A stretch of 24,000 bases of DNA from NCBI RefSeq assembly GCF_000934745.1, contig NZ_JYNO01000004.1:262035-286034 (forward strand). The letters are read 5' to 3'. Shown in pieces: positions 3,414 through 23,807 of this stretch. Within the stretch, counting starts at the first letter, position 1. Each line of letters opens with the position of its first letter. The position numbers and the translations under genes are program-made. The notes under the pieces were generated by a model that did no database searches, was not told where the DNA came from, and saw nothing but the letters and a program-made list of their open reading frames with translations. The stretch is from Desulfonatronum thioautotrophicum (lineage in GTDB: Bacteria > Desulfobacterota > Desulfovibrionia > Desulfovibrionales > Desulfonatronaceae).

Positions 3414-3660
3414 TGCCCGGCCTCCAGCTTGTTCTTCTGTTGTCGCGTTACCCTGAATCAGTGTAGCACGAGGGAAAGGGTGAATCAAGCACACGGGATG
3501 CTCGTATAGGGCGCAATTTCATTGTAAATTGGTAGACACTATTTCCAGCAGACGATTCATTTTGACTCTAGATGCCCTTGGACTGTTGTCTCCTCCGGGT
3601 ATCCCAATGGGATTTCGTGCCACCCAGCATTGGTGGACCATGTAGATGGAGAGAGTAAAA

Positions 3661-4389
3661 ATGATCGACCTTCTTTTTTGGCCTGTAATCCTGTTTCTGA
3701 CCATGATCGCCGGAACCATAGGTGGCGCGGTCGGTTTTGGCTCGGCGGTAATCTTGCTGCCTGTTTGTTCCTTTGTCTTTGGTCCTGAAGCGGCAGTGCC
3801 GATTCTGACACTGGCCGCGCTGATCGGCAACCTGTCACGCGCGGCTTTTTCCTGGTCCGAGATCAATTGGCCCATTGTGACGCTCTATTGTCTGGGTGCC
3901 GTGCCCATGGCGGCGCTCGGGGGGATGGTGTTTGTGGCCCTTGATCAGGAGGCGTTGCAGCGGATCCTGGGTCTGTTCATTCTCGCGATGTTGCCCTTGC
4001 GACGCTGGTCTGCACGCCATGGGATCGTGCCGAAGCAATGGCATTTTCTGCCTCTCGGCGCGGGCATGGGCTTTCTGTCGGGCGTGGTGGGGACTGTGGG
4101 GCCGATCAACGCGCCCTTTTTCCTGGCTTATGGTCTGGTGAAAGGTGCATATCTGGCCACCGAGGCACTGGGGGCCGCAGCGGTCCACTTGACAAAATCA
4201 GGAGTCTACGGGCGCTTTGCAGCGATTGACGTTACCGTGCTGACGTACGGGTTGGTTATCGGCGCAACGCTCATTTTCGGGTCATGGGCGGGTAAGCGGC
4301 TGATCGTAGGGTTGGAAACGCAACGCTTTATCGGCGTCGTCGAGGTGTTTCTGGTGGTCGCGGCATTGCTGATGATCATCGGTTTCTGA
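3661..4389 (+). CDS. TSUP-family (TauE/SafE, DUF81) anion permease
   Basis: Polytopic membrane protein with the typical G-rich TSUP helices (GTIGGAVGFGSAVILLP; GFLSGVVGTVGPI). I prefer the ATG at 3661, which is preceded by GGAGAGAG, over 3646. Confidence 0.8.
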   Translation: MIDLLFWPVILFLTMIAGTIGGAVGFGSAVILLPVCSFVFGPEAAVPILTLAALIGNLSRAAFSWSEINWPIVTLYCLGAVPMAALGGMVFVALDQEALQRILGLFILAMLPLRRWSARHGIVPKQWHFLPLGAGMGFLSGVVGTVGPINAPFFLAYGLVKGAYLATEALGAAAVHLTKSGVYGRFAAIDVTVLTYGLVIGATLIFGSWAGKRLIVGLETQRFIGVVEVFLVVAALLMIIGF

Positions 4390-9203: not shown

Positions 9204-10313
9204 ATGGTTTCCGTGGATGAGTCACTTTGCTTGATGCCACTCCTTATGACCTCCACTCCTGATGAAGACTACGCCGTTCGGCTCTCGCCCGGCGCTTCCT
9301 TTTCCATTCCATCCACAGCCAAGGTTCTCGACTCCGTCCAGCTGGCGGAATTGGAGCGGACGTTTCGGACCTGGGCAACCGAATCAGCAAGACAGGATGT
9401 TCGGGCGTCCAGACAACGCATTTTGCTGATATTCCTTCTGATTCGACATTCAGGCGCGAAGCTGAACGAGGTCTTGGAACTCAGGTTCGGGGACATTGAT
9501 CTGGAGAAGCGGGTCGTCATTTTGGCCGGCGAGGACAAGGAGAAGGGCAGGACCGTTGAAATTCCGGACGATCTGGCAGAGGAGCTTCGCACGGCCTTGA
9601 GTCAGGGCGCACATGCTCCGGATGACGCCCTGTTTCGAATCGATCCGGCCCATGTCCGGCGCAAGTTCTATGAGCAGGCCGAGGCCTGCGGCCTGCCACG
9701 GGACTTTGGCAATCCCAGTACGTTGCGCCGATCCCGCTCCGTGGAATTGTTGCGCGGCAACCTGCCTCTGCCTGTGGTCCAGCGGCTGCTGGGCCACTCC
9801 ACGCCCAATCTCACGGCCGCGCACCTGGAGGTTTCCGAGGAGGACGTTCATCATGCCGCGAGACAGTACGTGGACCGGGAAAGCAGCAGACGCACCAGCG
9901 CCCGGAACATTTTCTTCGGCAAGATCGTCGAAATGAACAAGGGTGACATCCAGTCCGAGGTGATTCTGCAGACCCTTGGTGACCTACGGATCACCTCCGT
10001 CATCACCAATACCAGCCTCAAGCGGATGCGCCTGAAGATCGGTACCTTTGCCACCGCTGAGATCAAGGCGCCCTGGGTGCTCATCGCCGGATCAGTGGAT
10101 GCGGCAGAGAACAGCGCGGAGAATCGCCTGCCTGGAGTGGTGATGGCGGTCAACGCGGGTAAGGTGAACGTGGAAGTTTTAGTGCGCCTTTCCGAAGGCA
10201 CGGAGATCTGCGCGGTGGTCACCGCTACCGGATTCCATCGTCTGAAATTGAAGGTGAATGATCCGGTTTGGACGCTTTTTGGGGCGTATTCCGTGATTCT
10301 TAATCGAGAGTGA
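9204..10313 (+). CDS. tunR: TunR-family tungstate/molybdate-responsive regulator (degenerate tyrosine-recombinase domain plus 2 x Mop/TOBE)
   Basis: The central region aligns by eye with the XerD catalytic domain (NPSTLRRSRSVELLRGNLPLPVVQRLLGHSTPNLTAAHLEV vs [41 protein letters not shown]), with Tyr replaced by His. The C-terminus has two Mop repeats beginning SARN and SAEN. It sits next to modBAC and the TSUP genes. The start codon is uncertain (9204, 9234 or 9246). Confidence 0.8.
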   Translation: MVSVDESLCLMPLLMTSTPDEDYAVRLSPGASFSIPSTAKVLDSVQLAELERTFRTWATESARQDVRASRQRILLIFLLIRHSGAKLNEVLELRFGDIDLEKRVVILAGEDKEKGRTVEIPDDLAEELRTALSQGAHAPDDALFRIDPAHVRRKFYEQAEACGLPRDFGNPSTLRRSRSVELLRGNLPLPVVQRLLGHSTPNLTAAHLEVSEEDVHHAARQYVDRESSRRTSARNIFFGKIVEMNKGDIQSEVILQTLGDLRITSVITNTSLKRMRLKIGTFATAEIKAPWVLIAGSVDAAENSAENRLPGVVMAVNAGKVNVEVLVRLSEGTEICAVVTATGFHRLKLKVNDPVWTLFGAYSVILNRE

Positions 10314-10415: not shown

Positions 10416-11963
10416 TCACGCCCGCTCCCACTCAAACCCCACAATATTGCGCTCCTCGCGCTCGAACTCCACGCCAACCAGATAGACGGCCTCGGTGTCC
10501 GCCCGGTACTTGTCCGCGTAGCCTTTTCGCCTGATCTGATCCAAGGCGCTACCCGGAGTTTGGTCCAGGTCCACCACCTTGAATTCAAAGATGTAGGCCC
10601 GGTTCTCGAAGAGCACTGTCATGTTCAGGCGACCGTGGCTGGTGGGTTCCTCCGGCCGGGTGTCCAGTCCCAAACCGGCGAAGTAGCAATAGAACACCGA
10701 GCAGTAGTAGCCTTCGTAGGCAGCCAGATTGTTCTTGCGGTACCAGTCGTGGGGAATGGCGGCGAACACGGCGTGGAACACCGCCCGCAGATCATCCACC
10801 TGGCCATGGCGCAGGGCGTTGACCAGGGTGCGCAAGGATTTCTTCATTGCCACCGGTTGCTGGGTGAAGAAGTTCAGCAGATGTTCGGTGAAGCTTTTTT
10901 TGACTTCATGGTTGGGATACCGCAGGCGGTAGAGCACTTCGCCGGGCAGAATCTCCTCCTGGCCGGTGATGGTCAGATAACCGGCCTGGAACAACAAGGT
11001 TTCGGGAAAGATGGACTCCACGTCGAAGCTGCCCAGCAGCTCAGGACCGATCTCGATTCCTTCTATGGCCGGGATGACATACCGTTGGGCCGTGAGCAGG
11101 CGGATCAGGAATTCCGGGGTTGCGGTTTCGAACCAGTAGTTCCGGAAGAGACCCTCTTGGAAGTAATTGAGCAGGCTGTAGGGATTGTAGGTCTTCTCCC
11201 CCAGCCAGGAATACCCGTTGTACCAGCGGCGGATTTCATCGAGATTCCTGCCCCGCAAGTGCTCGACAAAGGTGGCTGTCAGCTCGGATTCGGTCCAGCC
11301 GCAAATCGTGGCAAAGCGGGGGGAAAGGGTGATGTCCGTCAGGTTGTTCAGGCCGGAAAAAAGGCTCACCTTCGAAAACTTGGACACTCCGGTCAGGAAG
11401 ACGAACTTGAGATGGGCGTCGCTGTCCTTGATTACGGAGTAGAAGTTCTTCAAGCCGTTGCGTATCTGGACAGCCTGTTCCGGCTTGGTGATGTTGTCCA
11501 GAATCGGCTTGTCGTACTCGTCCACCAGGATAACCGTTGGGCTGCCGAATTTCTCAGCCGCTTGACGAATCAGATCTTCAAAGCAGTCAATAACGTTGTC
11601 AGGGTTGCGACACTGAATGCCCAATTCGTCTTGGTTGTTGCGCAAAATGGTGACGATCCGTTGATCCAATTCCTCGCGGTTGCGTAATACGCCGCTACCA
11701 AAAGAAATCCGGATCACGGGATGTCGCGTCTCCCAATTCCAACGGTCTTCCAGCCACAACCCGCGAAAGAGCTCCTGGTTGCCTTCGAAGGCCTCCTTGA
11801 GAGTGTCCACGAACAGGGATTTGCCGAAGCGCCGGGGGCGGGAGAGGAAGTAGTAGGAACCGTTTTCCACCAGTTCATGGATAAATCTGGATTTATCCAC
11901 GTAGGTGTAGTCCTCAGCTATAATTTTGCTCAGAGTCGCGATGCCAAGGGGTAGTTTCTTCAT
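10416..11963 (-). CDS. AAA-ATPase-like protein with C-terminal PD-(D/E)XK nuclease-like domain
   Basis: 515 aa. The N-terminus (LPLGIATLSKIIAEDYTYVDKSRFIHELVENGSYYFLSRPRRFGKSL) is the characteristic predicted AAA-ATPase family signature. The C-terminal region (YEGYYCSVFYCYF..FEFKVVD) resembles the associated PD-(D/E)XK module. Confidence 0.85.
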   Translation of the reverse strand: MKKLPLGIATLSKIIAEDYTYVDKSRFIHELVENGSYYFLSRPRRFGKSLFVDTLKEAFEGNQELFRGLWLEDRWNWETRHPVIRISFGSGVLRNREELDQRIVTILRNNQDELGIQCRNPDNVIDCFEDLIRQAAEKFGSPTVILVDEYDKPILDNITKPEQAVQIRNGLKNFYSVIKDSDAHLKFVFLTGVSKFSKVSLFSGLNNLTDITLSPRFATICGWTESELTATFVEHLRGRNLDEIRRWYNGYSWLGEKTYNPYSLLNYFQEGLFRNYWFETATPEFLIRLLTAQRYVIPAIEGIEIGPELLGSFDVESIFPETLLFQAGYLTITGQEEILPGEVLYRLRYPNHEVKKSFTEHLLNFFTQQPVAMKKSLRTLVNALRHGQVDDLRAVFHAVFAAIPHDWYRKNNLAAYEGYYCSVFYCYFAGLGLDTRPEEPTSHGRLNMTVLFENRAYIFEFKVVDLDQTPGSALDQIRRKGYADKYRADTEAVYLVGVEFEREERNIVGFEWERA

Positions 11964-12171
11964 GACGCGGACCTCGCGGGTATGGCAGGGATAAAGGAAT
12001 GTTCGGTCGGCGAAGTGTGATTGTGTCTATAGCGGAGCAGGGATGAAATGTCTTCCCGTGCGAGAAGGGCATGTCTTTGGGGGATGGCTTGCATGCCGGA
12101 GAGGAGCACCTTGGGGCGTTGCATGCAATGCGCATGGGCGCGATCCTCTCCTCATGCCCCTGCCAGCCGTA

Positions 12172-12747
12172 TCATGCTGCGTCAAGTCCGCGTAAGCGCT
12201 CGGCGATGTTCCAGGTCCGGCAGTGCCGGACAGTGGCCGTGGGGGTCAGGTGTTCCCAGGGCCTGCCCTGGAGCATAGCCTGGCGCACGTCAGTGCCGCT
12301 GATCCCTTTCTGCTCCGACGGAATCTCCCAGAGGACGTGAGTTCGCAGCCCCATGGCCTGGAACTGGGCGAGCTTGTGGCGGCCCCAGTCGTCGCAGATG
12401 GAGAGCAGAAAGACCGCATCCAGGGGTACGTAGTGGCGGTAAAGATCCGGATGGGTGATGGGTAGGGGGACGATGGTCACCTCCGCATGGCTGACTCCGG
12501 CTTCCAGCAGGACGTCCCGGAGAATCACCAGACGTTCGTAAAAAGTCAGGGGATTGGCCAGGGCGCTGGAACGCTTGCGGTCCGCGTCCACCTCGGCGGT
12601 CAGGCAGGGGTCCGGATTGGTGATGCCCACCACCAGATGGCGACACAGCGCCTTGCCGGCCATGAGGTAGCGTAGGTGGTCATTGTGCGGAACCTGAAAC
12701 CGCCCGTGAATCACGCCGATGTCGTACATATGCTTTCCATGCGGCAT
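12172..12747 (-). CDS. Cytidylyltransferase-fold nucleotidyltransferase (NMNAT-like)
   Basis: 191 aa. Has the HxGH-type motif in GVIHGRFQVPHNDHL. It lies 5 nt downstream of the mutase-like gene. The substrate is unknown. Confidence 0.7.
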   Translation of the reverse strand: MPHGKHMYDIGVIHGRFQVPHNDHLRYLMAGKALCRHLVVGITNPDPCLTAEVDADRKRSSALANPLTFYERLVILRDVLLEAGVSHAEVTIVPLPITHPDLYRHYVPLDAVFLLSICDDWGRHKLAQFQAMGLRTHVLWEIPSEQKGISGTDVRQAMLQGRPWEHLTPTATVRHCRTWNIAERLRGLDAA

Positions 12748-15343: not shown

Positions 15344-15631
15344 ATGTCGCGAGAAACACCTGGAAACGCTCCCTCCGCGGGCGCTCATCCCCGGGAATGG
15401 GAATTTGACGAAGAATTCGACGGCGGAGAGGAGACATGCGGACGGGTGATCATCAACCTCTACACCTACCTGCTGCCCATGCCTCCGGGAACCAGGGTGA
15501 TGCTCATTTCCCAGGATCCGGCCGCGCCCATCGAGTTTCCGGCCTGGTGCCGCATGACCAGGAATACCCTTCTGGACATGCGCCACCCCTATTATCTCAT
15601 TGAATACAAACCCGAACAGAAAAAGGAGTGA
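15344..15631 (+). CDS. TusA/SirA-like sulfur-carrier protein (variant Cys motif)
   Basis: Start at the ATG at 15344, after GGGAGAGG. The segment FDGGEETCGRVIINLYTYLLPMPPGTRVMLISQDPAAPIEFPAWCRMT parallels E. coli TusA [45 protein letters not shown]. The motif is CGRV instead of CPxP. Confidence 0.7.
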   Translation: MSRETPGNAPSAGAHPREWEFDEEFDGGEETCGRVIINLYTYLLPMPPGTRVMLISQDPAAPIEFPAWCRMTRNTLLDMRHPYYLIEYKPEQKKE

Positions 15632-15635
15632 TTCC

Positions 15636-16001
15636 ATGGCAAACAGATTCTGCGTAACCATCAGCCACTGCCGCACCGACGGCGACAAGGCCACCCTGGG
15701 CTTCGTTGTGGCCAATGCCGCCCAAGGCAGCGAAAAGGAAACCATGATCTTTCTGAGCACGGACGGCGTGTACTGCGCGGTCAAGGGAGAGGCGGAAAAG
15801 ATCGATGAAGGCGCACCCTTTGCCCCGCTCAAGGAACTGATCACCAAGTTCGTCAATGCCGGTGGGAAAATCTATGTCTGCACACCCTGTCTGAAAAAAC
15901 GCGGCCTGTCCGAGGCCGATTTGATCGAGGGCTCGGTCCCGGCCGGCGGTGCGGCGTTGGTGGAATGGCTGTCCGCGGATCCGGCCTGCGTGGCGTATTG
16001 A
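15636..16001 (+). CDS. DsrE/DsrF-like family protein with VCTPC motif
   Basis: ATG at 15636, preceded by AAGGAG (15623-15628). 121 aa. DsrE-fold pattern (FVVANAAQG..MIFLSTDGV..GGKIYVCTPCLKKRGL). Confidence 0.7.
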   Translation: MANRFCVTISHCRTDGDKATLGFVVANAAQGSEKETMIFLSTDGVYCAVKGEAEKIDEGAPFAPLKELITKFVNAGGKIYVCTPCLKKRGLSEADLIEGSVPAGGAALVEWLSADPACVAY

Positions 16002-16014
16002 GCCGGAAGGTAGA

Positions 16015-16098
16015 GTTCAGAAGTCAGAATTCAGAATTCAGAATTCAGGAGTCAGAAGTCAGAAGACAGAATACAGGAGACTGGAGATAGGAGACAGG
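16015..16098. repeat. About twelve tandem degenerate heptanucleotide units (A-N-T/A-C-A-G-A/G)
   Basis: GTTCAGA AGTCAGA ATTCAGA ATTCAGA ATTCAGG AGTCAGA AGTCAGA AGACAGA ATACAGG AGACTGG AGATAGG AGACAGG. The array is intergenic and starts 14 nt after the DsrE-like stop. Confidence 0.9.
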
Positions 16099-16230
16099 GG
16101 ATGGAATGCGCTGGCGTTTCGTTGTCTGTGGGGGGCTGGGGGGGAGTGGGTGCGGCGCTGGGTGCTATTCCACGCGAAGCGCTCGTCCTCTCCGGCCTTT
16201 CATCAAGAATTCCATGGAGGAGTGATTTGC

Positions 16231-16998
16231 ATGTCTGCAATCGATGACCAGGTTGACCTGGCCGGGCTTCAGCCCGCGCGGATCTTTGATGGCGGCGATC
16301 TGGACTGCGGGTCCGGGTTGATTCTCCTGATCCGGGAAAACATGCTCCAGACAGGGGTTGGGGAGATTCTGGAAATGCGCAGTCGGGAGCCCACGGTCAA
16401 CGACGACCTGCCGCCCTGGTGCCGGATGGCCGGGCACGTGTATCTGGGCCGTTTGGAGGGACCGGGATATGCCCGCTATTTCCTGCGCCGGGGGGAGCCC
16501 AAGGCTGATCAGCCCACTCCTTCCGACGACCAGGCTTTGGCCGAGGACAAGAAAAAGGCCACTGAGTACGAGTGGCGGATGCGGATTCGGTCCACGGGCA
16601 ACCTGAAGAGTACGGTCTATTGTCGGAACTTTTCCTGGGACTTGGGGCAGCCGGCCAGCTTCAAGGACAAGGATGCCCACCCCTGCGCCGTGGAAGCCTT
16701 GCTGGGTGCCCTGGGTGGGGCGTTGAGCAGCGGTTTTGCCACGGATTGCGCCCGGGAGGGGCTGGAGGTGGATGATGTGGAGATCACGGTCCGCGGCAGG
16801 CTGCGCAACATTCTGGCGCACATGGGCCTGGAAGAGGGTGATCCGTCTTTCGCGGGCATTGAGGTGAAATGCTTCGCTTCGACCATGGACGACGAAGCCA
16901 AGGTTCGTGCGGTCTGGAGCCAAACCGTGGCCCGCTCGCCCATTGCGGCCACGCTGGCCAAGGCGGTAGATTTGAACATCAAATTCGCGGTGGTGTGA
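16231..16998 (+). CDS. TusA-like / OsmC-like fusion protein
   Basis: ATG at 16231, after GGAGGAG. The N-terminal module (FDGGDLDCGSGLILLIRENMLQTGVGEILEMRSREPTVNDDLPPWCRMAG) is paralogous to the gene at 15344. The C-terminal 150 aa have the OsmC/Ohr-fold pattern (HPCAVEALLGALGGALSSGF ... VARSPIAATL). Confidence 0.7.
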   Translation: MSAIDDQVDLAGLQPARIFDGGDLDCGSGLILLIRENMLQTGVGEILEMRSREPTVNDDLPPWCRMAGHVYLGRLEGPGYARYFLRRGEPKADQPTPSDDQALAEDKKKATEYEWRMRIRSTGNLKSTVYCRNFSWDLGQPASFKDKDAHPCAVEALLGALGGALSSGFATDCAREGLEVDDVEITVRGRLRNILAHMGLEEGDPSFAGIEVKCFASTMDDEAKVRAVWSQTVARSPIAATLAKAVDLNIKFAVV

Positions 16999-17000
16999 TC

Positions 17001-18188
17001 ATGTTTACGACAACCCAGGTCGGCAGCTGGCCCCGGTCCCAAACCATGCTCAAGGCCTTGCGCGACCGTCGCCTGGAGCGGATGTCCCAGGCCGAGTTCA
17101 ACGCCGTGGCCGACGAGGAGGTCCGACGTACCGTGCGCATCCAGGAGGAGGCCGGCCTGGACATTGTGGTGGACGGTGAACATCGCCGGGATAACTTCTA
17201 CTCCTTTATCACGGAAAAGGTGTCCGGAACCAGGCTGATGAGTCTGGCCGAGATGCTGGACGAGGTGGAGGACAAGTCCGGGTTCGAGGAGTTGTTGAGT
17301 ACGCTGGACGTACCGGCCTCGGCCATCCGCAACCCCACCTGCGTGGGGCGGCTGGAGCGGCGCGAGCCCCTGGCCGTGGATGATTTGCGGTTCGTGAAGC
17401 AGCTTACGGACAAGCCGGTGAAGATCACCCTGCCCGGGCCCTACCTGCTCAGCCGGTCCATGTGGGTACCCAATTATACCAAGAGCGCCTACCGCGACCA
17501 AGGCGAGCTGGGCGACGACGTTGTGCGCATCCTGAGGGACGAACTGCTGGAACTGGCCGAGGCCGGTTGTGAATTCGTGCAGTTCGACGAGCCGGTGCTC
17601 ACGGAAGTGGTCATGTCCGCGGAGTGCGGCCGGCGAACCTTCATGTGAGCGACTCTGGCCACCCGCCGGGATGTGGGTGTTGAACTGGAGTACGCCGCGG
17701 AACTGATCAATCGGGTCATCGACGGCATTGCCGCCCCGCCAAGGGGACCGCGCATCGGTCTGCATATTTGCCGGGGCAACTGGAGCACCCGGGAGGATGT
17801 CCTGCTTACCGGAGATTATACCCCCTTGCTGCCGGCCTTGACCCGGATGCGGGTGCATCAATTCGTGTTGGAATATGCCACGCCGCGGGCCGGAGAGATC
17901 GCCGTGGTCGGGGAAGCCCTGTCCGGGGCCGTTCCCGGGACGGACCGCCCGCGGGAACTGGGTCTGGGCGTGGTCAACCCCCGGACCACGGAAGCCGAAT
18001 CCCCCGAGGAGATCGTGGCCAAGGCCGAGCTGGCCCTGCGCCACTACCGCCCGGAACAAGTGTTCCTGAACACGGATTGCGGCTTCGGCTGCTTCGCCAA
18101 CCGCTGCGTGAACGTGGAGGAGGTGGCCACGGACAAGATCCGGAACATTGTTCTGGCGGCCAGGATGCTCCGGGAGCGGCATGGCTGA
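17001..18188 (+). CDS. MetE-like (cobalamin-independent methionine synthase catalytic-domain family) Zn methyltransferase with in-frame TGA at 17646-17648 (candidate Sec216; alternatively a pseudogene)
   Basis: Two same-frame ORFs (..17648 and 17673..) are separated only by the TGA and 8 sense codons. Upstream of the TGA are the motifs GSWPR, VVDGEHRR and VQFDEPVL. Downstream are Zn-site-like LHICRGN, LEYATP and NTDCGFG. The start ATG at 17001 lies 2 nt after the preceding stop. Confidence 0.6.
17652..17691 (+). promoter_or_regulatory. SECIS-like bipartite RNA hairpin immediately 3' of the in-frame UGA
   Basis: Lower stem 17652-17658 pairs with 17685-17691 (7 bp including 2 G-U). There is an asymmetric internal loop. 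Upper stem 17660-17666 pairs with 17673-17679 (7 bp including 1 G-U). The apical loop is CGGGAU. The hairpin starts 4 nt after the UGA and the loop starts 18 nt after it. Confidence 0.4.
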
Positions 18189-19377
18189 ACCGTTTCCGCG
18201 GCGGCCTGAGCTGGAGCGGACGGCACGGGAGGTCAATGCCGGATGTACCGGTTGCCGGATCTGTGTCCGCCAGTGCGCCTTTCTGAAAATGAATGCGCCT
18301 CCCGGGCGGATAGCCCAGGCCCTGCTGACCGGGGCCGGTCGAACCGACCCGTTTGCCTGCAGTCTGTGCGGCCTGTGCGGGGCGCTTTGTCCGGAAATGG
18401 TCAAACCCGGAAATATGTTCCTGGAAATGCGCCGAGAAGCGGTGGACCAAGGCCGTGTGGACTGGAAACGGTACAAGGCGATTCTGAATTATGAACGGCG
18501 CGGGCATTCCGCGCTATTCAGCTGGTATCCAACCAGGTCGAGCAAAAACGTCTTTTTCCCCGGCTGCACCCTGCCGGGGACTCGGCCGCGGATCACCTGG
18601 CAGTTTTTCGAGGCATTGCGATCCCTGTATCCGGACATGGCCATGGTCCTGGATTGCTGCCACAAGCCGTCCCATGATCTGGGGCGGCAGTCCTTTTTTC
18701 TTGAACGGTTTCAGGGCATCCAAGACCGCCTGCTGGCCCTGGGCGTAAAGCGGCTCTTCGTGGCCTGTCCCAACTGCCATAAAGTTTTCAAGCAATACGG
18801 AGGCGGGCAGGAGGTCGTCACCGTCTATGAGGCCCTGGCCCAAGGCCGGTATCACGTCCAGGGCCAGGAAGCGGTGCACCAGGATTTCGCAATCTCTCCG
18901 GATACATCCGTGCAGGTCGCCATCCATGATCCGTGCCCGTTACGGGACGAGCCGAAAACCCATGAGGCCGTTCGAGCCCTGCTCTCCACCCGCGGGTTTG
19001 CCCTTCGCGAAATGAAGAACAGCCGGACCCGCACCCTGTGCTGCGGCGAGGGAGGGTCCGTCGGCTTCCACACCCCGGCCCTGGCCACGACCTGGGCCAA
19101 AAAGCGGCGCGCCCAGAGCCAGGTCAGGGGCCAGTCCCAGGGCCATAGTCGGGATCAGTCCCAAGGCCAGAACCGTTCCCAGGCCCAGGCCGACCGGGTT
19201 GTCACCTACTGCGCCGGTTGCACCGCCTGCCTCAATCGCTTCATGCCCACCAGCCATCTGGGTGATCTGCTTTTTGATCCGAATAGCACCCTGGCCGGAA
19301 AGAACAGACCAGCCAAGGCTCCCATCACCTATCTAAACCGGTTGCTGTTCAAGCGGCGGCTGAAAAGATTTTCCTGA
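18181..19377 (+). CDS. HdrD/GlpC-like Fe-S oxidoreductase (2 x [4Fe-4S] ferredoxin motifs plus 2 x CCG domains)
   Basis: Ferredoxin-type motifs CTGCRICVRQC and CSLCGLCGALCP are present. CCG-type motifs are present (FFPGCTLPG, LDCCHKP, CPNCHKVF; IHDPCPLRD, LCCGEGGS, YCAGCTACL). The ATG at 18181 overlaps the MetE-like stop (ATGGCTGA). Contains an SQ/GQ-rich insertion. Confidence 0.85.
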   Translation: MAEPFPRRPELERTAREVNAGCTGCRICVRQCAFLKMNAPPGRIAQALLTGAGRTDPFACSLCGLCGALCPEMVKPGNMFLEMRREAVDQGRVDWKRYKAILNYERRGHSALFSWYPTRSSKNVFFPGCTLPGTRPRITWQFFEALRSLYPDMAMVLDCCHKPSHDLGRQSFFLERFQGIQDRLLALGVKRLFVACPNCHKVFKQYGGGQEVVTVYEALAQGRYHVQGQEAVHQDFAISPDTSVQVAIHDPCPLRDEPKTHEAVRALLSTRGFALREMKNSRTRTLCCGEGGSVGFHTPALATTWAKKRRAQSQVRGQSQGHSRDQSQGQNRSQAQADRVVTYCAGCTACLNRFMPTSHLGDLLFDPNSTLAGKNRPAKAPITYLNRLLFKRRLKRFS

Positions 19378-19655: not shown

Positions 19656-20201
19656 ATGCTGAAGAATCAAGCGCAGGTACAGTTGGAAAACACGAAAAAT
19701 CCGAGCGAACAGGACCAATCCAAGGAGTCGGCCATGACCCGCGGCGATTTTCTCAAGCTTGCCGGGGCCGGGGGGTTGGGAATGGCGGCCATGATGGGCA
19801 TGAGCAGTCCGGTCATGGCCGGAGAGGGCAAGAAAGGCAAATACCTTTTCGTCGTCAGTGCCGGTTCCAAGGATCCGGACAAGGCCATGCTGGCCTTGCT
19901 GCTGGCTGACGTGGTGCAGAAGCAGGAACTGGGAGACGTGCACATCTATCTGTGGGGTGACGGGGCGGAACTCTCCAAGATCGGACGCCCGGAACGCATT
20001 ACTTCGGCCAGTTTTCACCGACTGGGCAATGCGCTTGGCATGCTGGAACGGCTGCAGCGCAACGGGGCGCAGATTGGAGTGTGTCCGCCCTGCGCGGAGT
20101 GGGTCGGGGCCGTGGACGATCAGAAGTATGAGTGGGCGAACAGAGAAGACGGTGGTGTGCTCTTGCGCAGCATGCAGGAATCCTGGACAGCCTGGCTCTA
20201 G
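19656..20201 (+). CDS. Exported DsrE-like protein with CPPC motif and degenerate Tat-like signal
   Basis: Signal region MTRGDFLKLAGAGGLGMAAMMGMSSPVMA-GE, followed by a DsrE-fold pattern (KYLFVVSAGSKDP..HIYLWGDGA..IGVCPPCAEW). Both ATG 19656 and ATG 19734 have AAGGAG-type RBSs, so the start is uncertain. Confidence 0.7.
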   Translation: MLKNQAQVQLENTKNPSEQDQSKESAMTRGDFLKLAGAGGLGMAAMMGMSSPVMAGEGKKGKYLFVVSAGSKDPDKAMLALLLADVVQKQELGDVHIYLWGDGAELSKIGRPERITSASFHRLGNALGMLERLQRNGAQIGVCPPCAEWVGAVDDQKYEWANREDGGVLLRSMQESWTAWL

Positions 20202-20270
20202 CTTTTCCGGCTGTATACGGTGATTCGTTCGTCTTGAACCGCTTTATTTCAGAAAAACATGGAGATGCAT

Positions 20271-20588
20271 ATGCGACTGATCAAATCGATTCTGCTCACA
20301 ATATTGACCCTTTTCGTTCTCTCCACGGCGCTGCCATTGGCCGCGACGGCGGAGAAGACCCCGGAGGTCAATACTCGGGGTGCCTGCCTGAACGTCAGGG
20401 AGTTTGTGGCCCTGATCCAGCATGAAAGCCGGCGCATGGAAAGCGGCAACATCCTGCGGCTGATCGCCGACATTCCCAACGAGGTCGAGGCCCGGGAAGC
20501 CATTGAGACCGTCGGTTATCCCATCATGGAAGAGACTCGGGACGATGATCGTGACTTTATAAACTTTCTGCTTGAGGTCCGGAAATGA
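20271..20588 (+). CDS. Small exported hypothetical protein (single Cys)
   Basis: The ATG at 20271 lies 6 nt after GGAG. Signal peptide MRLIKSILLTILTLFVLSTALPLAATA-EK. The stop overlaps the next start (ATGA at 20585-20588). I recognise no family. Confidence 0.55.
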   Translation: MRLIKSILLTILTLFVLSTALPLAATAEKTPEVNTRGACLNVREFVALIQHESRRMESGNILRLIADIPNEVEAREAIETVGYPIMEETRDDDRDFINFLLEVRK

Positions 20589-22312
20589 GCCGAGCATGGC
20601 AAGCGGTGCGTCCGCTGCTGTTGCCTCTTTTGGTGTTCATCGTCGTGTTCGTCGGGCATATGCTTTTCTATAAGATTGTATCCCAGAATTCTAGCCCGAT
20701 CTGGTGGCGACTGTATGTTCTGACCCAGACCTACATGATCAGCTTTTCCCTGGCCCTGGCCTTTGCTTTTGGAGCCTACGCCCTGGGCAAGGCCAGAGGT
20801 CAGTCAGGAAAGGCGGTGGCCGGCAGCGCGGGAGTCGCACTGCTGGTCTGGTTCACCAGCGCCTGTGGCGCGCCGCTGATCGCCGTGGGCCTCGGGTTGG
20901 TGGGCGTCGGTTTTGGGTCTGAGGCTCTGCCGCCCTGGGTTACAGCGGTGCTGACCATCTGCTTCATTTCCTTTGGAGTTTATTGGCTGCATCGCAAAGG
21001 GGGGGCCTGTGCCACGGCCTGCGCGGCCAAGGCTGGGGAGAATGCCGGTTTATTCCGTGAAATCGGGGTGGACCTGGACAAGTTCGGCGCGCAGCAATGC
21101 GTCACCGGCGAACTCTATGAGCGGACCTTCGCGGCCCAGCAAAATCGCCCGGCGGGCATGGCCTACTTCGATGAAATGGCCGGAGACATCTACGGTGCCC
21201 GGATGCGCGAGATTATCGCGGCCAAGAAGGAAGGCCGCGTCGTGGTGGGCAACTTTTGTGTTTTCGTCCCCGAAGAACTCACCCTGGCCGTAGACGGCAT
21301 CTCCGTGGGCCTGTGCGCGGGCTCTCAAGCTCCGGTTTCGGATGCGGAAAAGGTTCTGCCTCGAAACATCTGTCCCCTGGTCAAGTCAGCGTATGGCTAC
21401 GCCCTGACCAAGTCATCGCCCTATTTTCAGGTTGTGGATTTTGTCTGTGGTGAAACAACCTGCGACGCGAAGAAGAAGACCTGGGAGCTGATGGACCGGG
21501 AGATCCCCACCCATGTAATGGAAATTCCCCAGATGAAACGGGAGCGGGATCGTGATCTCTGGCTGGCGGAGGTCAAGGAGTTCAAGGCCAAGCTGGAACA
21601 GCAAAGCGGCAAGACCATTACACCCGAGGCTCTGTCCAAGGCCGTGGCGGTAATGGACGCCAAGCGAGGCTCCCTGCAACGCCTCAATGCCCTGCGTCAC
21701 CACCGTCCCTCCCCCATCAGCGGCCGGGACGCCTTGTTGGTGGAACAGATCGCCTTTTACGACGATCCGGTCCGGTTTACGGAAAAGGTCAACGTGCTTT
21801 GCGACGAACTGGACAAGCGGGTTCAGGACGGCGTCTTCGCCGCACCGTCCCAGTCTCGGCGGATCATGATTTCCGGTTCACCCATGGCCCTGCCCAATTG
21901 GAAGGTGCACAATATCGTGGAGGGTGCCGGGGCCGTGGTGGTCAACGAGGAGTCCTGTGTCGGCACCCGGTACTTCAGCCAGAATGTCGCCCAGAGCGAT
22001 GAGGACATGGATAGTATGTTGTTGGCTCTGACCGAGCGGTACATGCAGATAAATTGCGCCTGCTTCACGCCCAATGAGGGGCGAATCGAGCAGATCATCC
22101 GAGAGTACCGCGACTCCAGAGCGGACGGGCTGATTCATTACAGCCTGCAATTCTGTCACACCTATCTGATCGAGGCAGTGCGGATCAAGGAGGCCTGCGC
22201 CAAGGAGAGCATCCCTTTTCTGGCCGTGGAAACGGATTATTCCACCGAGGACACGGGTCAGTTGCAAACCAGGATCGAAGCGTTCCTGGAACAGATTGGA
22301 GGTCAACGATGA
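20585..22312 (+). CDS. Membrane-anchored HgdB/BcrC/BadD-family (2-hydroxyacyl-CoA dehydratase D-component / double-cubane-cluster-type) protein
   Basis: 575 aa. Residues 1-140 form four predicted TM helices: basic N-terminus, KARGQSGK loop, HRKGG after TM4. The remainder carries the HGD-D family Cys pattern (GNFCVFVPEE, GLCAGSQ, NICPLVKS, FVCGETTCDAKKK, EESCVGTR, INCACF, LQFCHTY). Confidence 0.85.
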   Translation: MSRAWQAVRPLLLPLLVFIVVFVGHMLFYKIVSQNSSPIWWRLYVLTQTYMISFSLALAFAFGAYALGKARGQSGKAVAGSAGVALLVWFTSACGAPLIAVGLGLVGVGFGSEALPPWVTAVLTICFISFGVYWLHRKGGACATACAAKAGENAGLFREIGVDLDKFGAQQCVTGELYERTFAAQQNRPAGMAYFDEMAGDIYGARMREIIAAKKEGRVVVGNFCVFVPEELTLAVDGISVGLCAGSQAPVSDAEKVLPRNICPLVKSAYGYALTKSSPYFQVVDFVCGETTCDAKKKTWELMDREIPTHVMEIPQMKRERDRDLWLAEVKEFKAKLEQQSGKTITPEALSKAVAVMDAKRGSLQRLNALRHHRPSPISGRDALLVEQIAFYDDPVRFTEKVNVLCDELDKRVQDGVFAAPSQSRRIMISGSPMALPNWKVHNIVEGAGAVVVNEESCVGTRYFSQNVAQSDEDMDSMLLALTERYMQINCACFTPNEGRIEQIIREYRDSRADGLIHYSLQFCHTYLIEAVRIKEACAKESIPFLAVETDYSTEDTGQLQTRIEAFLEQIGGQR

Positions 22313-22866
22313 AGGTGAAGCATCTTGCAATATTGGCGGCTCTGACCATGCTTTTGGGAGCCGGAGCCTCTCCGGCTTTCTCCGGCCAGAGCAACTCGCC
22401 TTTTCCGGTGGCCGACGGCTGCCTGACGGATGAGGATCTTCTTCCGGACGACAGCGTGGCCCTGGAGGGAGTTGAGATCGGCCGGATATTCTGGGACGTG
22501 ACCATCGCCGACCCCAGCCTGCTGGCCGGACGTCTCGGCGTGATTGATCAGACCTACCGGGACATGGTCCGCCAAGGAGTGACACCGGAAATGGTCCTGG
22601 CCTTTCGAGGCGGGTCAGTCCGTCTGTTGGTTGCCGACCATAGCAGGCTGCCTGAAGAAACTCGTGAAGGCGCCCAAAGCGTCCAGCAGCGGCTTGAACG
22701 GTTGATGGAACTGCCTGGAGTACGGCTGGAAGCCTGTTATATCGCCATGCGCCGTGTTCCCCTGGAACCGCAAAACCTGATGCCAGGGCTGCACACCGTG
22801 AACAATACCTTCCTCTCGGCCATGGGGTACGGCCAGAGGGGGTTCATCTCCATTCCCATTCACTAA
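22309..22866 (+). CDS. Exported DsrE-related protein (COG1416-like)
   Basis: Signal peptide MKVKHLAILAALTMLLGAGASPAFS-GQ. The mature part fits the COG1416 pattern (IFWDVT..; VRLEACYIAMRR; TFLSAMGYGQRGFISIP). Its start overlaps the upstream stop (ATGA). Confidence 0.6.
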   Translation: MKVKHLAILAALTMLLGAGASPAFSGQSNSPFPVADGCLTDEDLLPDDSVALEGVEIGRIFWDVTIADPSLLAGRLGVIDQTYRDMVRQGVTPEMVLAFRGGSVRLLVADHSRLPEETREGAQSVQQRLERLMELPGVRLEACYIAMRRVPLEPQNLMPGLHTVNNTFLSAMGYGQRGFISIPIH

Positions 22867-23024
22867 CTGTTGGGGAATATTGGCCCACCAACTCGAACAC
22901 CGTGACCACGGGGCGGTCGCCAGATAGTATGGATCGCCCCGTTTTCATGGAGATGTTTTTCAGCATTCACCCTCCATTTCTGTTCAATAACCGAGAAAAT
23001 CATGAACGAGCAAAAGGCGTCCAG

Positions 23025-23807
23025 ATGATCGCAAGCCCTGGAAATGTTGCTGGAATCGACATTGGTTCCCGGTCCATCGAGCTGGTTGTTCTGAGTCATG
23101 CCGGGAGGGTCGAGCATCAGGTCAGGGTTCCGACCACCTTTGATCCCTTGCGCCAATGCCGCGAGATCCTTGAGGGGGTGGCGGTGGAATGGGTCACGGC
23201 CACGGGATATGGCCGCAAGCTGTTCGTGGAGAGCGGTATCGCGGAGGCGTGCGGGGCGATTACCGAGATTCAGGCCTATGCCCTGGGTACGGCGGGATTG
23301 TTCCCCGAGGCGCGCACCGTCCTGGACATTGGCGGCCAGGATACCAAGGTCATTTCCCTCGGATCTGGGGGCCGGGTGCTGAAGTTCGAGATGAACGACC
23401 GCTGTGCCGCGGGAACGGGCAAATTTCTGGAGATCATGGCCACGTCGCTGCAGATCCCCATCGAGGAGTTTGGCGATTTCTCCCTGGGTTCGACGAAGCA
23501 GGTGCGCATCAGCAGCATGTGTACCGTATTTGCCGAGTCCGAGGCCACGTCCCTGATGGGCCGGGGCGAGCGACCGGAAAATATCGCCATGGGCCTGCAT
23601 TTGGCCATCGTGGAGCGCACCATGGCCATGCTCAACCGGGTCGGCCTGGAGCATCCTTTATGCTTTGCCGGAGGCGTGGCCCACAACCGTTGCGTGGTCA
23701 AGCTGCTGCAGGAGCGGATTGAGGAGACGATCATCGTTCCGGAACGACCGGACATGGTCGGCGCACTGGGTGCGGCCATGCACGGCGCACTGCGGCGGAA
23801 TACGTAA
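23025..23807 (+). CDS. HgdC/BcrAD-type ATP-dependent activase (CoA-substrate-specific enzyme activase family)
   Basis: ASKHA-fold motifs GIDIGSRSIE, ATGYGR, EIQAYALG and DIGGQDTK are present. Cluster-bridging region MNDRCAAGTGKFLE. Also SSMCTVFAESEATSL. 260 aa from the ATG at 23025. Confidence 0.9.
   Translation: MIASPGNVAGIDIGSRSIELVVLSHAGRVEHQVRVPTTFDPLRQCREILEGVAVEWVTATGYGRKLFVESGIAEACGAITEIQAYALGTAGLFPEARTVLDIGGQDTKVISLGSGGRVLKFEMNDRCAAGTGKFLEIMATSLQIPIEEFGDFSLGSTKQVRISSMCTVFAESEATSLMGRGERPENIAMGLHLAIVERTMAMLNRVGLEHPLCFAGGVAHNRCVVKLLQERIEETIIVPERPDMVGALGAAMHGALRRNT

Follow-up and report, generated by a model that had tools for sequence, protein, structure and literature searches.

A widely conserved and apparently undescribed four-gene selenoprotein cassette around a barrel-only MetE-like enzyme

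The DNA considered here is a stretch of 24,000 nucleotides from Desulfonatronum thioautotrophicum (contig NZ_JYNO01000004.1, positions 262,035 to 286,034), called the window below. Within it lies a run of genes for carrier-like proteins and for a relative of the methionine synthase MetE. The central feature of this locus is selenocysteine (Sec), which, judged from aligned sequences, is encoded by an in-frame UGA of the MetE-like gene. Ten genes of the window are numbered G1 to G10 in order, with G1 to G5 on the + strand, and positions count from the window start.

The locus and its four conserved genes

G1 (15344-15631, WP_084604577) encodes a TusA-like two-cysteine carrier of 95 amino acids, as read from its open reading frame (ORF) and sequence. 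It is followed by G2 (15636-16001, WP_045220123), a DsrE-like protein of 121 amino acids with the motif VCTPC, and by G3 (16231-16998, WP_045220124), a fusion of a TusA-like and an OsmC domain. G4 (17001-18188) is a barrel-only MetE-like zinc enzyme. Read through the UGA at 17646-17648 it is 395 amino acids long, with the putative Sec at residue 216. A hairpin similar to a selenocysteine insertion sequence (SECIS) is found at 17660-17679. G5 (18181-19377) encodes an HdrD/GlpC-like CCG iron-sulfur protein, which matches an NCBI protein of D. thioautotrophicum at 100% identity.

A preliminary description of this DNA, made from the sequence, had named these five genes and read them as one operon. 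The gene identities hold: the Pfam models DsrE, OsmC, Meth_synt_2 and CCG all match over their cut-offs, and the TusA matches stay below theirs. The junctions it gave are exact as well, with 4 nucleotides between G1 and G2, 2 nucleotides between G3 and G4, and an overlap of 8 nucleotides, ATGGCTGA, between G4 and G5. The spacer between G2 and G3, which that description passes over, is 229 nucleotides long and contains about 12 units of a 7-nucleotide tandem repeat of the type TCAGAAG/CAGGAGA (16012-16098, no strand assigned, found with Tandem Repeats Finder). Across other genomes the length of this spacer ranges from about 6 to 859 nucleotides.

An Rfam scan of the window and five further loci at gathering thresholds returned no RNA family, and hence no clue from an S-adenosylmethionine or cobalamin riboswitch. 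Promoter and terminator scans gave matches that are no more numerous than in shuffled sequence.

Related loci were collected by scanning one genome per species. This gave 80 loci, and the search for neighbouring genes covered 85. Partner genes were sought by tblastn of the window proteins against all loci. There are 69 Sec-type loci from other genomes, and the 63 that have at least 1.5 kb of upstream flank form the counting set.

All three partners, G1, G2 and G3, are present in 59 of the 63. The TusA-OsmC fusion is immediately upstream of G4 in 61 loci, and a G1 homologue is found in 60. The usual order is G1-G2-G3-G4; in some Acidobacteriota and Planctomycetota, the G1-type gene is downstream of G4. 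The taxa that carry the cassette are Desulfobacterota, Acidobacteriota, Planctomycetota, Bacteroidota, Gemmatimonadota, Calditrichia, Eisenbacteria, Krumholzibacteriia, Fibrobacteraceae, Armatimonadota and Pseudomonadota, at least 11 phyla in all. Cultured carriers include several Desulfonatronum species, Desulfonatronovibrio hydrogenovorans, Fundidesulfovibrio soli, Humidesulfovibrio idahonensis and Desulfopila aestuarii.

The conserved unit is therefore one of four genes: a TusA-like protein, a DsrE-like CxxC protein, a TusA-OsmC fusion and a MetE-like selenoprotein. It is a self-contained module, because an all-against-all clustering of ORFs over the 85 loci, crude in that its longest-ORF heuristic also took antisense ORFs in GC-rich DNA, found no neighbour family beyond the cassette in more than 10 loci. 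Of the five genes first described as a unit, genes 1 to 4 stay together and gene 5 does not: a G5 homologue was found by tblastn (E ≤ 1e-5) in none of the 85 loci. The order of G1 to G4 recurs in about 60 unrelated genomes, so the arrangement is far beyond chance. For these four genes, neighbourhood conservation, the check named in the preliminary description itself, is strongly positive, and the earlier claim that their linkage is functional and not accidental stands.

Some Acidobacteriota loci have additions. In one of these, L021, the downstream G1-type module (11291-11914) has an N-terminal Cys-rich extension of about 130 amino acids (CSGCGVAVCGHE...CRDC). An arsenite-methyltransferase-like (ArsM-like) gene follows the cassette there (11985-12596), and also in L023, with three such loci in all. 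The ArsM-like ORF of L021 ends at residue 203, and it matches NF041537 with 206 bits over model positions 9-201 of 345. Models of ArsM-type selenoproteins (345-459 positions) continue past the end of this ORF, and its stop is probably another Sec codon.

The selenocysteine codon and its enzyme

Once the UGA is taken as a residue, hundreds of proteins of 380-400 amino acids align with G4 over its whole length, at 55-68% identity. The UGA falls on a column that is cysteine in 19 of 20 aligned full-length homologues, in the motif RTFM-C-A(T/A)LA. In the window the same motif reads RRTFM-U-ATLATRRD. The exception among the 20 is P0001, a JGI protein of 377 amino acids and the closest full-length database homologue of G4, which has a 6-residue gap (RTFMCA) at the Sec/Cys position. 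This gap looks like an artefact of a gene model that skips the TGA, rather than a real deletion.

At the DNA level, the codon at this motif is TGA in 69 of the 81 loci from other genomes. With the window included, the count is 70 of 82 for TGA and 12 of 82 for TGC or TGT. Both halves of G4 around the TGA are under strong purifying selection, at 60-84% amino-acid identity over at least 11 phyla.

The hairpin starts 11 nucleotides after the UGA. It has a 7-bp stem, CACCCGC/GUGGGUG, and a G-containing loop of 6 nucleotides, CGGGAU; in degenerate form it reads ACCCGC-CGKGAY-GCGGGU. Across 70 sequences, 90% of cells in the stem are paired, versus 32-52% when the 3' arm is slid. Covariation is limited, since the stem is nearly invariant.

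The stem also codes for Thr-Arg-Arg-Asp-Ala-Gly, which makes it possible to look at synonymous sites. At the stem codons ACC, CGC and GCG/GTG, third-position entropy is 0-0.3 bits in Sec forms versus 1.45-1.9 bits in Cys forms. Flanking four-fold sites have 1.5-1.9 bits. This synonymous freezing is seen in the TGA forms alone, which points to a constraint at the RNA level that is specific to Sec forms. The Sec/Cys pairing and the downstream hairpin both follow the usual bacterial rules known from other selenoproteins.

Taken together, the alignment on a cysteine column, the codon counts and the Sec-specific hairpin constraint indicate that the UGA of G4 encodes selenocysteine, and they bear out the earlier reading of this UGA as coding, which the preliminary description mentioned only briefly and built nothing on. 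A scan of the window itself found no tRNA gene, and no sel genes were seen in it.

The enzyme belongs to the MetE barrel. Pfam Meth_synt_2 (PF01717) matches G4 over residues 2-387, with 105.4 bits against a cut-off of 21. The NCBIfam methionine-synthase equivalogs (PRK04326, PRK06520, PRK06233, PRK09121, PRK00957 and others) produce nine matches, all below cut-off; the best of these is NF003317, with 165 against 406. TIGR01371 scores 97 versus a cut-off of 930. G4 has no N-terminal folate barrel, and its 395 amino acids compare with about 750 in canonical two-barrel MetE. The single Meth_synt_1 match, at 19.5 bits versus a cut-off of 27, falls on the C-barrel repeat.

Four zinc ligands, H255, C257, E291 and C360, are the same in all 21 sequences compared, and their motifs line up with HFC, IE and NPDC in an alignment to 4ztx. 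Zinc in Thermotoga maritima MetE is held by His618, Cys620, Glu642 and Cys704 (PMC539065), and the equivalence to these was made by motif. In the same protein, Ser411, Glu462 and Asp577 bind the carboxylate and amino group of homocysteine (PMC539065). The residues of G4 aligned to this trio, S9 (VGSWP), E60 (DGE) and D196 (FDEP), are also invariant. Because both the homocysteine-binding trio and the zinc ligands are kept, homocysteine or a closely similar amino acid is still the most likely occupant of the zinc site of G4.

An AlphaFold2 (AF2) model of G4 has a pLDDT of 88 and a pTM of 0.90. Foldseek matches it best to the T. maritima MetE C-terminal barrel (TM 0.73, E 1.5e-21). Other barrel-only matches are 3rpd from Shewanella (TM 0.71, 20% identity) and 1ypx. 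The likeness to the MetE C-terminal barrel of T. maritima and Escherichia coli thus covers the fold, the zinc site and the Ser/Glu/Asp homocysteine residues, but identity is only about 20%. Compared with MetE, G4 has two insertions, at about residues 81-107 and 205-225, and the additional cysteines C114, C364 and C369.

The second insertion carries Sec216. It comes right after the FDEP strand (beta4 in the nomenclature of MetE), which neighbours the strand with the His-x-Cys zinc ligands. The loop at 210-224 has a pLDDT of 60-75 and no secondary structure, and is predicted to be flexible. After the last zinc ligand comes a second loop that is flexible and rich in cysteine, with the sequence C360-GFG-C364-FANR-C369. 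C114 is cysteine in 84 of 85 aligned sequences.

Partner proteins and the possible role of the cassette

The TusA modules of G1 and G3 match Pfam TusA (PF01206) with 22.8 and 20.7 bits, both under the cut-off of 28.6, and have CG(R/S) in place of the canonical CPxP. Both modules are best called TusA-like. As had been proposed, they are paralogues: they share FDGG..CG and WCRM, with 31% identity over 54 residues (E 4e-8). In G1, C32 (of DGGxxxCG) and C69 (of WCRM) are invariant in all 61 homologues aligned by tblastn. C26 and C64 of the TusA-like module of G3 are invariant too.

G2 matches Pfam DsrE (PF02635) with 60.1 bits against a cut-off of 22.7, and is 56-88% identical to its homologues in other phyla. 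Its C82-T-P-C85 pair is cysteine in 64 of 64 aligned homologues. None of the cysteine pairs of G1, G2 and G3 is ever TGA in a homologue.

The second half of G3 matches Pfam OsmC (PF02566) with 40.1 bits versus a cut-off of 27.5. The cysteines of this fold are not conserved: C152 is serine in 48 of 72 homologues, and C173 and C214 vary. A role for the domain as a cysteine peroxidase was considered and ruled out, since its cysteines are not conserved and the free-standing OsmC-like partners of Cys-type relatives have none in the aligned region. The G3-type fusion has 1204 database matches, of which the 120 listed are about 245-290 amino acids long. Among these 120, a Rosetta-stone search found no fusion beyond TusA plus OsmC.

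Relatives of G4 that have cysteine at the Sec position occur in Verrucomicrobiales, in a Chloroflexota metagenome-assembled genome (MAG) and in a more distant metagenome lineage. Their partners are an Rv1679-family acyl-CoA-dehydrogenase-like (ACAD) protein (NF049984, 382 bits), an Rv1680-family SBP-like protein (NF049985, 219 bits) and a free-standing OsmC-like protein beside the enzyme, which has no cysteine in the aligned region. This alternative set is found in L001, L003, L005, L052, L064, L066, L067, L070, L076 and L095. Both partner sets occur together in L066, and in L052 a Sec form has the ACAD/SBP set.

The link between OsmC fold and enzyme is independent: Cys-type relatives in Verrucomicrobiales and in the more distant metagenome lineage have a free-standing OsmC-like gene next to the enzyme. 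Judged from these gene neighbourhoods, the enzyme and the OsmC-fold protein are the constant core, and the TusA-like and DsrE-like proteins are one of two alternative accessory sets. The alternative set is sometimes accompanied by a thioredoxin, a rhodanese or an AmiS/UreI channel. The one Rv1680-family SBP-like protein inspected, that of L081, has no obvious signal peptide. Titles and abstracts on Rv1679 and Rv1680 of Mycobacterium tuberculosis reveal no obvious functional study.

The best explanation of the cassette is put forward tentatively, at somewhat less than even odds. It is that G4 is a barrel-only, Sec-dependent thiol alkyltransferase of the homocysteine type, which is recycled or fed through a dedicated relay of cysteine pairs. 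The zinc of G4 would bind homocysteine or a closely analogous thiol or thioether amino acid, and the enzyme would perform thiol alkyl (methyl) transfer without methylfolate. A mobile selenolate would swing over the zinc site, and in each cycle bond transiently with substrate or partner, through Se-S or possibly Se-C. A nearby cysteine (C364/C369 or C114) could then resolve this bond.

From there, passage outward would lead over the paired cysteines that the TusA-like and DsrE-like proteins contain, through exchange of the dithiol-disulfide or selenosulfide kind or through transfer of a chalcogen atom. The Cys-poor OsmC-fold domain would act as a docking subunit. In Desulfonatronum only, the HdrD-like G5 would probably feed electrons into the relay; in other phyla, a generic reductant would have to do so.

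Several points weigh against this explanation. The cysteine pairs could equally chelate a chalcogen or metalloid instead of running a disulfide relay, and the cassette encodes no reductase of its own. The placement of the Sec216 loop near the zinc strand rests on topology. The Cys-type relatives pair with the quite different ACAD and SBP-like set, which means that the carriers are not universally required by the enzyme family; the Sec-type loci L052 and L068 have no carriers nearby either. Finally, the simple scheme in which Sec is a methyl relay that substitutes for cobalamin is chemically doubtful. By our own reasoning, a neutral selenoether is a poor methyl donor, and the methyl-relay idea was set aside as the primary scheme.

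An unlikely alternative, and essentially the idea of the preliminary description, is delivery of sulfane sulfur. The TusA-like and DsrE-like proteins would be persulfide carriers that bring sulfur to the MetE-like enzyme. There, the carrier-bound persulfide would be methylated, or the sulfur used on a homocysteine-type substrate, with the CCG protein reductively releasing the product in Desulfonatronum. The TusA and DsrE folds are indeed established as sulfur-relay proteins, and the DsrE score of G2 is well over its cut-off. G5-type proteins recurrently adjoin rhodanese and YedF, and in the next module of the window G2 has an exported paralogue that shares its VCxPC motif. One active cysteine suffices for a persulfide carrier, yet each module here has an invariant pair, and CPxP is absent. 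In addition, the homocysteine-binding trio implies a free amino acid at the zinc and not a protein persulfide, and G5 is not conserved with the cassette.

It is quite unlikely that G4 is an ordinary core methionine synthase, which takes its methyl group from a corrinoid protein or similar donor. Sec/Cys216 would then protect or tune an oxidation-sensitive site, and the thiol proteins would be a repair or antioxidant set. The intact zinc and homocysteine sites fit this, as does the membership of the partner domain in the OsmC superfamily. There are core methionine synthases that have unusual partners, such as MesD with DUF1852 (PMC7857596), and E. coli MetE is reported to be inactivated by oxidative stress (PMC521173). 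What speaks against it is that the NCBIfam equivalogs are so far under their cut-offs, and that strict synteny with three partners over at least 11 phyla exceeds what a repair accessory normally shows. The OsmC-like domain has no conserved peroxidatic cysteines, and the neighbour clustering of 85 loci found no recurrent corrinoid-protein gene near the cassette.

Handling of selenium or metalloids appears very improbable. Here the cysteine pairs would chelate selenium (as selenotrisulfide), arsenic or another soft element, and the MetE-like enzyme would methylate or demethylate an amino-acid species that contains selenium or a metalloid, serving either salvage to SelD or detoxification. In L093 (2895-6161), a G5 homologue is divergent from SelD (TIGR00476, 360 bits) and YedF (TIGR03527, 207 bits), and the best NCBIfam relative of G5 is named 'diclust_near_Sec'. 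The ArsM-like gene after the cassette of L021 could be read in the same way, and the version of the cassette that has the carriers goes with the enzyme's Sec form. However, that ArsM-like neighbour occurs in 3 loci only, and clustering of the 85 loci found no recurrent selD, yedE or yedF near the cassette. Since the Cys-type relatives keep both the active-site motif and the OsmC-like partner, a core reaction specific to selenium is unlikely.

Public gene sets treat G4 in different ways. A recent NCBI record for D. parangueonense (L086) has a single coding sequence of 395 amino acids through the TGA. An older NCBI record for a Desulfonatronum-related MAG (L090) has no protein at the G4 position, and metagenome gene calls, including those of L087, split G4 into 215 plus 171 amino acids. 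When the 215-residue N-terminal fragment was searched against a representative library, the best match was a fragment of 220 amino acids that ends at the Sec position.

Such gene calls, and the missing protein in L090, are what one would expect if the UGA were a true stop and G4 a pseudogene or two genes in a decayed operon, but this is effectively refuted by 70 sequences, drawn from at least 11 phyla, in which the TGA falls exactly on the column of Cys216 and purifying selection on either half is strong (60-84% amino-acid identity), by the hairpin kept with synonymous constraint, and by the single 395-residue coding sequence of the newer record. In most public gene sets, G4 is split into the two fragments or dropped as a pseudogene. 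As a result, it is missing from the metabolic reconstructions made for many sulfate reducers, Acidobacteriota and Planctomycetota. Because one NCBI record reads through the UGA, the selenoprotein status of the family may be known to annotators, though unpublished in the literature searched.

Parts of the cassette resemble known systems. In the sHdr-TusA-DsrE3 system of sulfur oxidisers, studied by the Dahl laboratory, TusA- and DsrE-type proteins are encoded with a heterodisulfide-reductase-type CCG protein, and the window likewise has a TusA-type, a DsrE-type and a CCG protein encoded together. None of HdrA, HdrB1/B2, HdrC1/C2 or a lipoate-binding protein is among the window proteins scanned. 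In contrast to sHdr, the central enzyme here is MetE-like, the CCG protein is of the HdrD-like kind and no conserved companion of the cassette, and the carriers show cysteine pairs but no CPxP.

The core folate-independent methionine synthases MesA-MesD are similar in logic. MesD needs an obligatory partner, MesX (DUF1852) (Price et al. 2021, PMC7857596), and shares with G4 a barrel-only MetE homologue, no usual use of methylfolate, and family-specific adjacent partners. The partners of G4 are TusA-like, DsrE-like and OsmC-like proteins, and not DUF1852 or corrinoid proteins. A Pfam scan found no match to DUF1852 (PF08908) among the ten proteins G1-G10. A Sec or Cys in the loop, as in G4, is reported for none of the four families, and PMC7857596 does not mention selenocysteine. 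The proposed role of the cassette would extend the question of which methyl donor barrel-only methionine synthases take and why they rely on partner proteins of their own.

Selenoprotein families of DsrE-like (UxxC) and OsmC-like (UxxT) proteins are known (PMC13188914, Table 1). The same folds are in the cassette, and the CxxC of G2 matches the position pattern of UxxC, but the Sec of the cassette lies in the MetE-like enzyme instead. As an analogy of mechanism only, GrdA and GrdB of glycine reductase, whose motifs are described in PMC13188914, could be compared, with a Sec on a flexible element by the substrate site, resolving cysteines, and dedicated small redox partners. The folds are unrelated, and the comparison would not imply reductive chemistry for G4.

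No PF01717 or MetE-like entry is present among the 119 prokaryotic selenoprotein families of a May 2026 review (PMC13188914, Table 1), a table that includes the families of Haft & Tolstoy 2025. The main text of the BSepDB paper, also of 2026, mentions no MetE-like selenoprotein. A literature search found no paper that links MetE-like proteins with TusA, DsrE and OsmC, or that describes a MetE-like selenoprotein. The widely conserved four-gene selenoprotein cassette is thus apparently undescribed, and it points to an undescribed selenium-dependent step in sulfur amino-acid chemistry.

A more far-reaching proposal, possible but doubtful as a whole, is that G4 represents a fifth, Sec-dependent family of folate-independent MetE-type enzymes. 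It would have a catalytic Sec on a mobile loop, obligatory two-cysteine partners and a Cys-less OsmC-fold subunit, and would carry out an undescribed reaction of methionine, homocysteine or other organosulfur compounds. Catalogues would have missed this selenoprotein family because gene callers truncate G4 at residue 215. If true, this would add a widespread selenoprotein family to the MetE barrel fold, where none is catalogued, and a new kind of client enzyme for TusA-like, DsrE-like and OsmC-fold proteins.

The fifth gene and the remainder of the window

G5 has ferredoxin-type CxxCxxCxxxC motifs at residues 22-32 and 60-70, followed by two CCG-type sets, C129/C159-C160(H)/C196/C199 (CCH) and C252/C287-C288(G)/C344/C347 (CCG). 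Pfam CCG matches with 32.1 against a cut-off of 20.6. The best NCBIfam match is NF045663, with 179 bits versus a cut-off of 530, over model positions 310-604 of 759. This is a pyridine nucleotide-disulfide oxidoreductase/dicluster-binding protein, which G5 resembles in its two ferredoxin-type motifs and two CCG-type domains; unlike it, G5 has no N-terminal flavoprotein part.

Residues 309-336 of G5 (19105-19188) are a low-complexity stretch rich in Gln, Ser and Arg, AQSQVRGQSQGHSRDQSQGQNRSQAQA, between the CCG motif and the last cysteine pair. Some close homologues of G5 are about 24 residues shorter.

The reading of the five genes as one unit does not survive comparison with other genomes, as G5 follows the cassette only in close Desulfonatronum relatives. 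The five-gene order with the 8-nucleotide overlap is kept only in D. parangueonense (L086) and a closely related MAG (L090). In D. zhilinae, restriction-modification and toxin-antitoxin genes, about 7.8 kb in all, lie between G4 and G5. The preliminary description had also drawn an analogy to the methyl-thiol/heterodisulfide chemistry of methanogens. This is weakened, because it relies on G5, which is a lineage-specific neighbour and not co-conserved. What was observed earlier is therefore confirmed, and its interpretation is partly supported.

Elsewhere, G5 homologues keep other company. Desulfosarcina ovata has homologues of G8, G5 and G10 side by side (45%, 45% and 52% identity), in the order double-cubane reductase, CCG protein, activase. 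Rhodanese genes adjoin G5 homologues in L091 and L094, and many G5 homologues are fused to a VTT/DedA membrane domain. Such contexts suggest a general role of the G5 family with sulfur or selenium carriers. On the evidence of gene neighbourhoods, G5 is an HdrD-like redox partner of modular kind, which tends to be found with chalcogen carriers, and a lineage-specific neighbour rather than a member of the cassette. In the window, it sits at the seam between the cassette and the downstream double-cubane module.

Around G5, Desulfonatronum has a hot spot of defence islands (L088 834-7864, L086 9889-17125 and L090 10051-17197). The genes between G4 and G5 in D. zhilinae include Type I restriction-modification and toxin-antitoxin genes. 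Restriction-modification, Fic and related genes come after G5 in D. parangueonense and the related MAG.

Directly downstream of G5 is a second module, at 19656-23807. It starts with G6 (19656-20201), a DsrE-like protein with the motif VCPPC and a twin-arginine-like signal, which is a paralogue of G2 (29% identity, E 7e-9). G7 (20259-20588) and G9 (22309-22866) are small proteins with a signal peptide and no family match. The idea that G7 is a secreted TusA-like protein was rejected, as it has no detectable similarity to G1, and a comparison of G9 with G2 found no similarity. Between them, G8 (20585-22312) is a double-cubane-cluster reductase, which scores 479 bits with NF040772 (cut-off 350); unusually, its N-terminal part has a hydrophobic region some 200 amino acids long. 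G10 (22902-23807) is an activase ATPase (TIGR00241, 207 bits).

Elsewhere in the window are an XdhC-family protein (107-1177, - strand) and a membrane protein of the TauE/SafE sulfite-exporter family (3646-4389, + strand). A protein with phage-integrase and TOBE domains is encoded at 9204-10313 (+ strand), and the same combination is found upstream of the cassette in L090.

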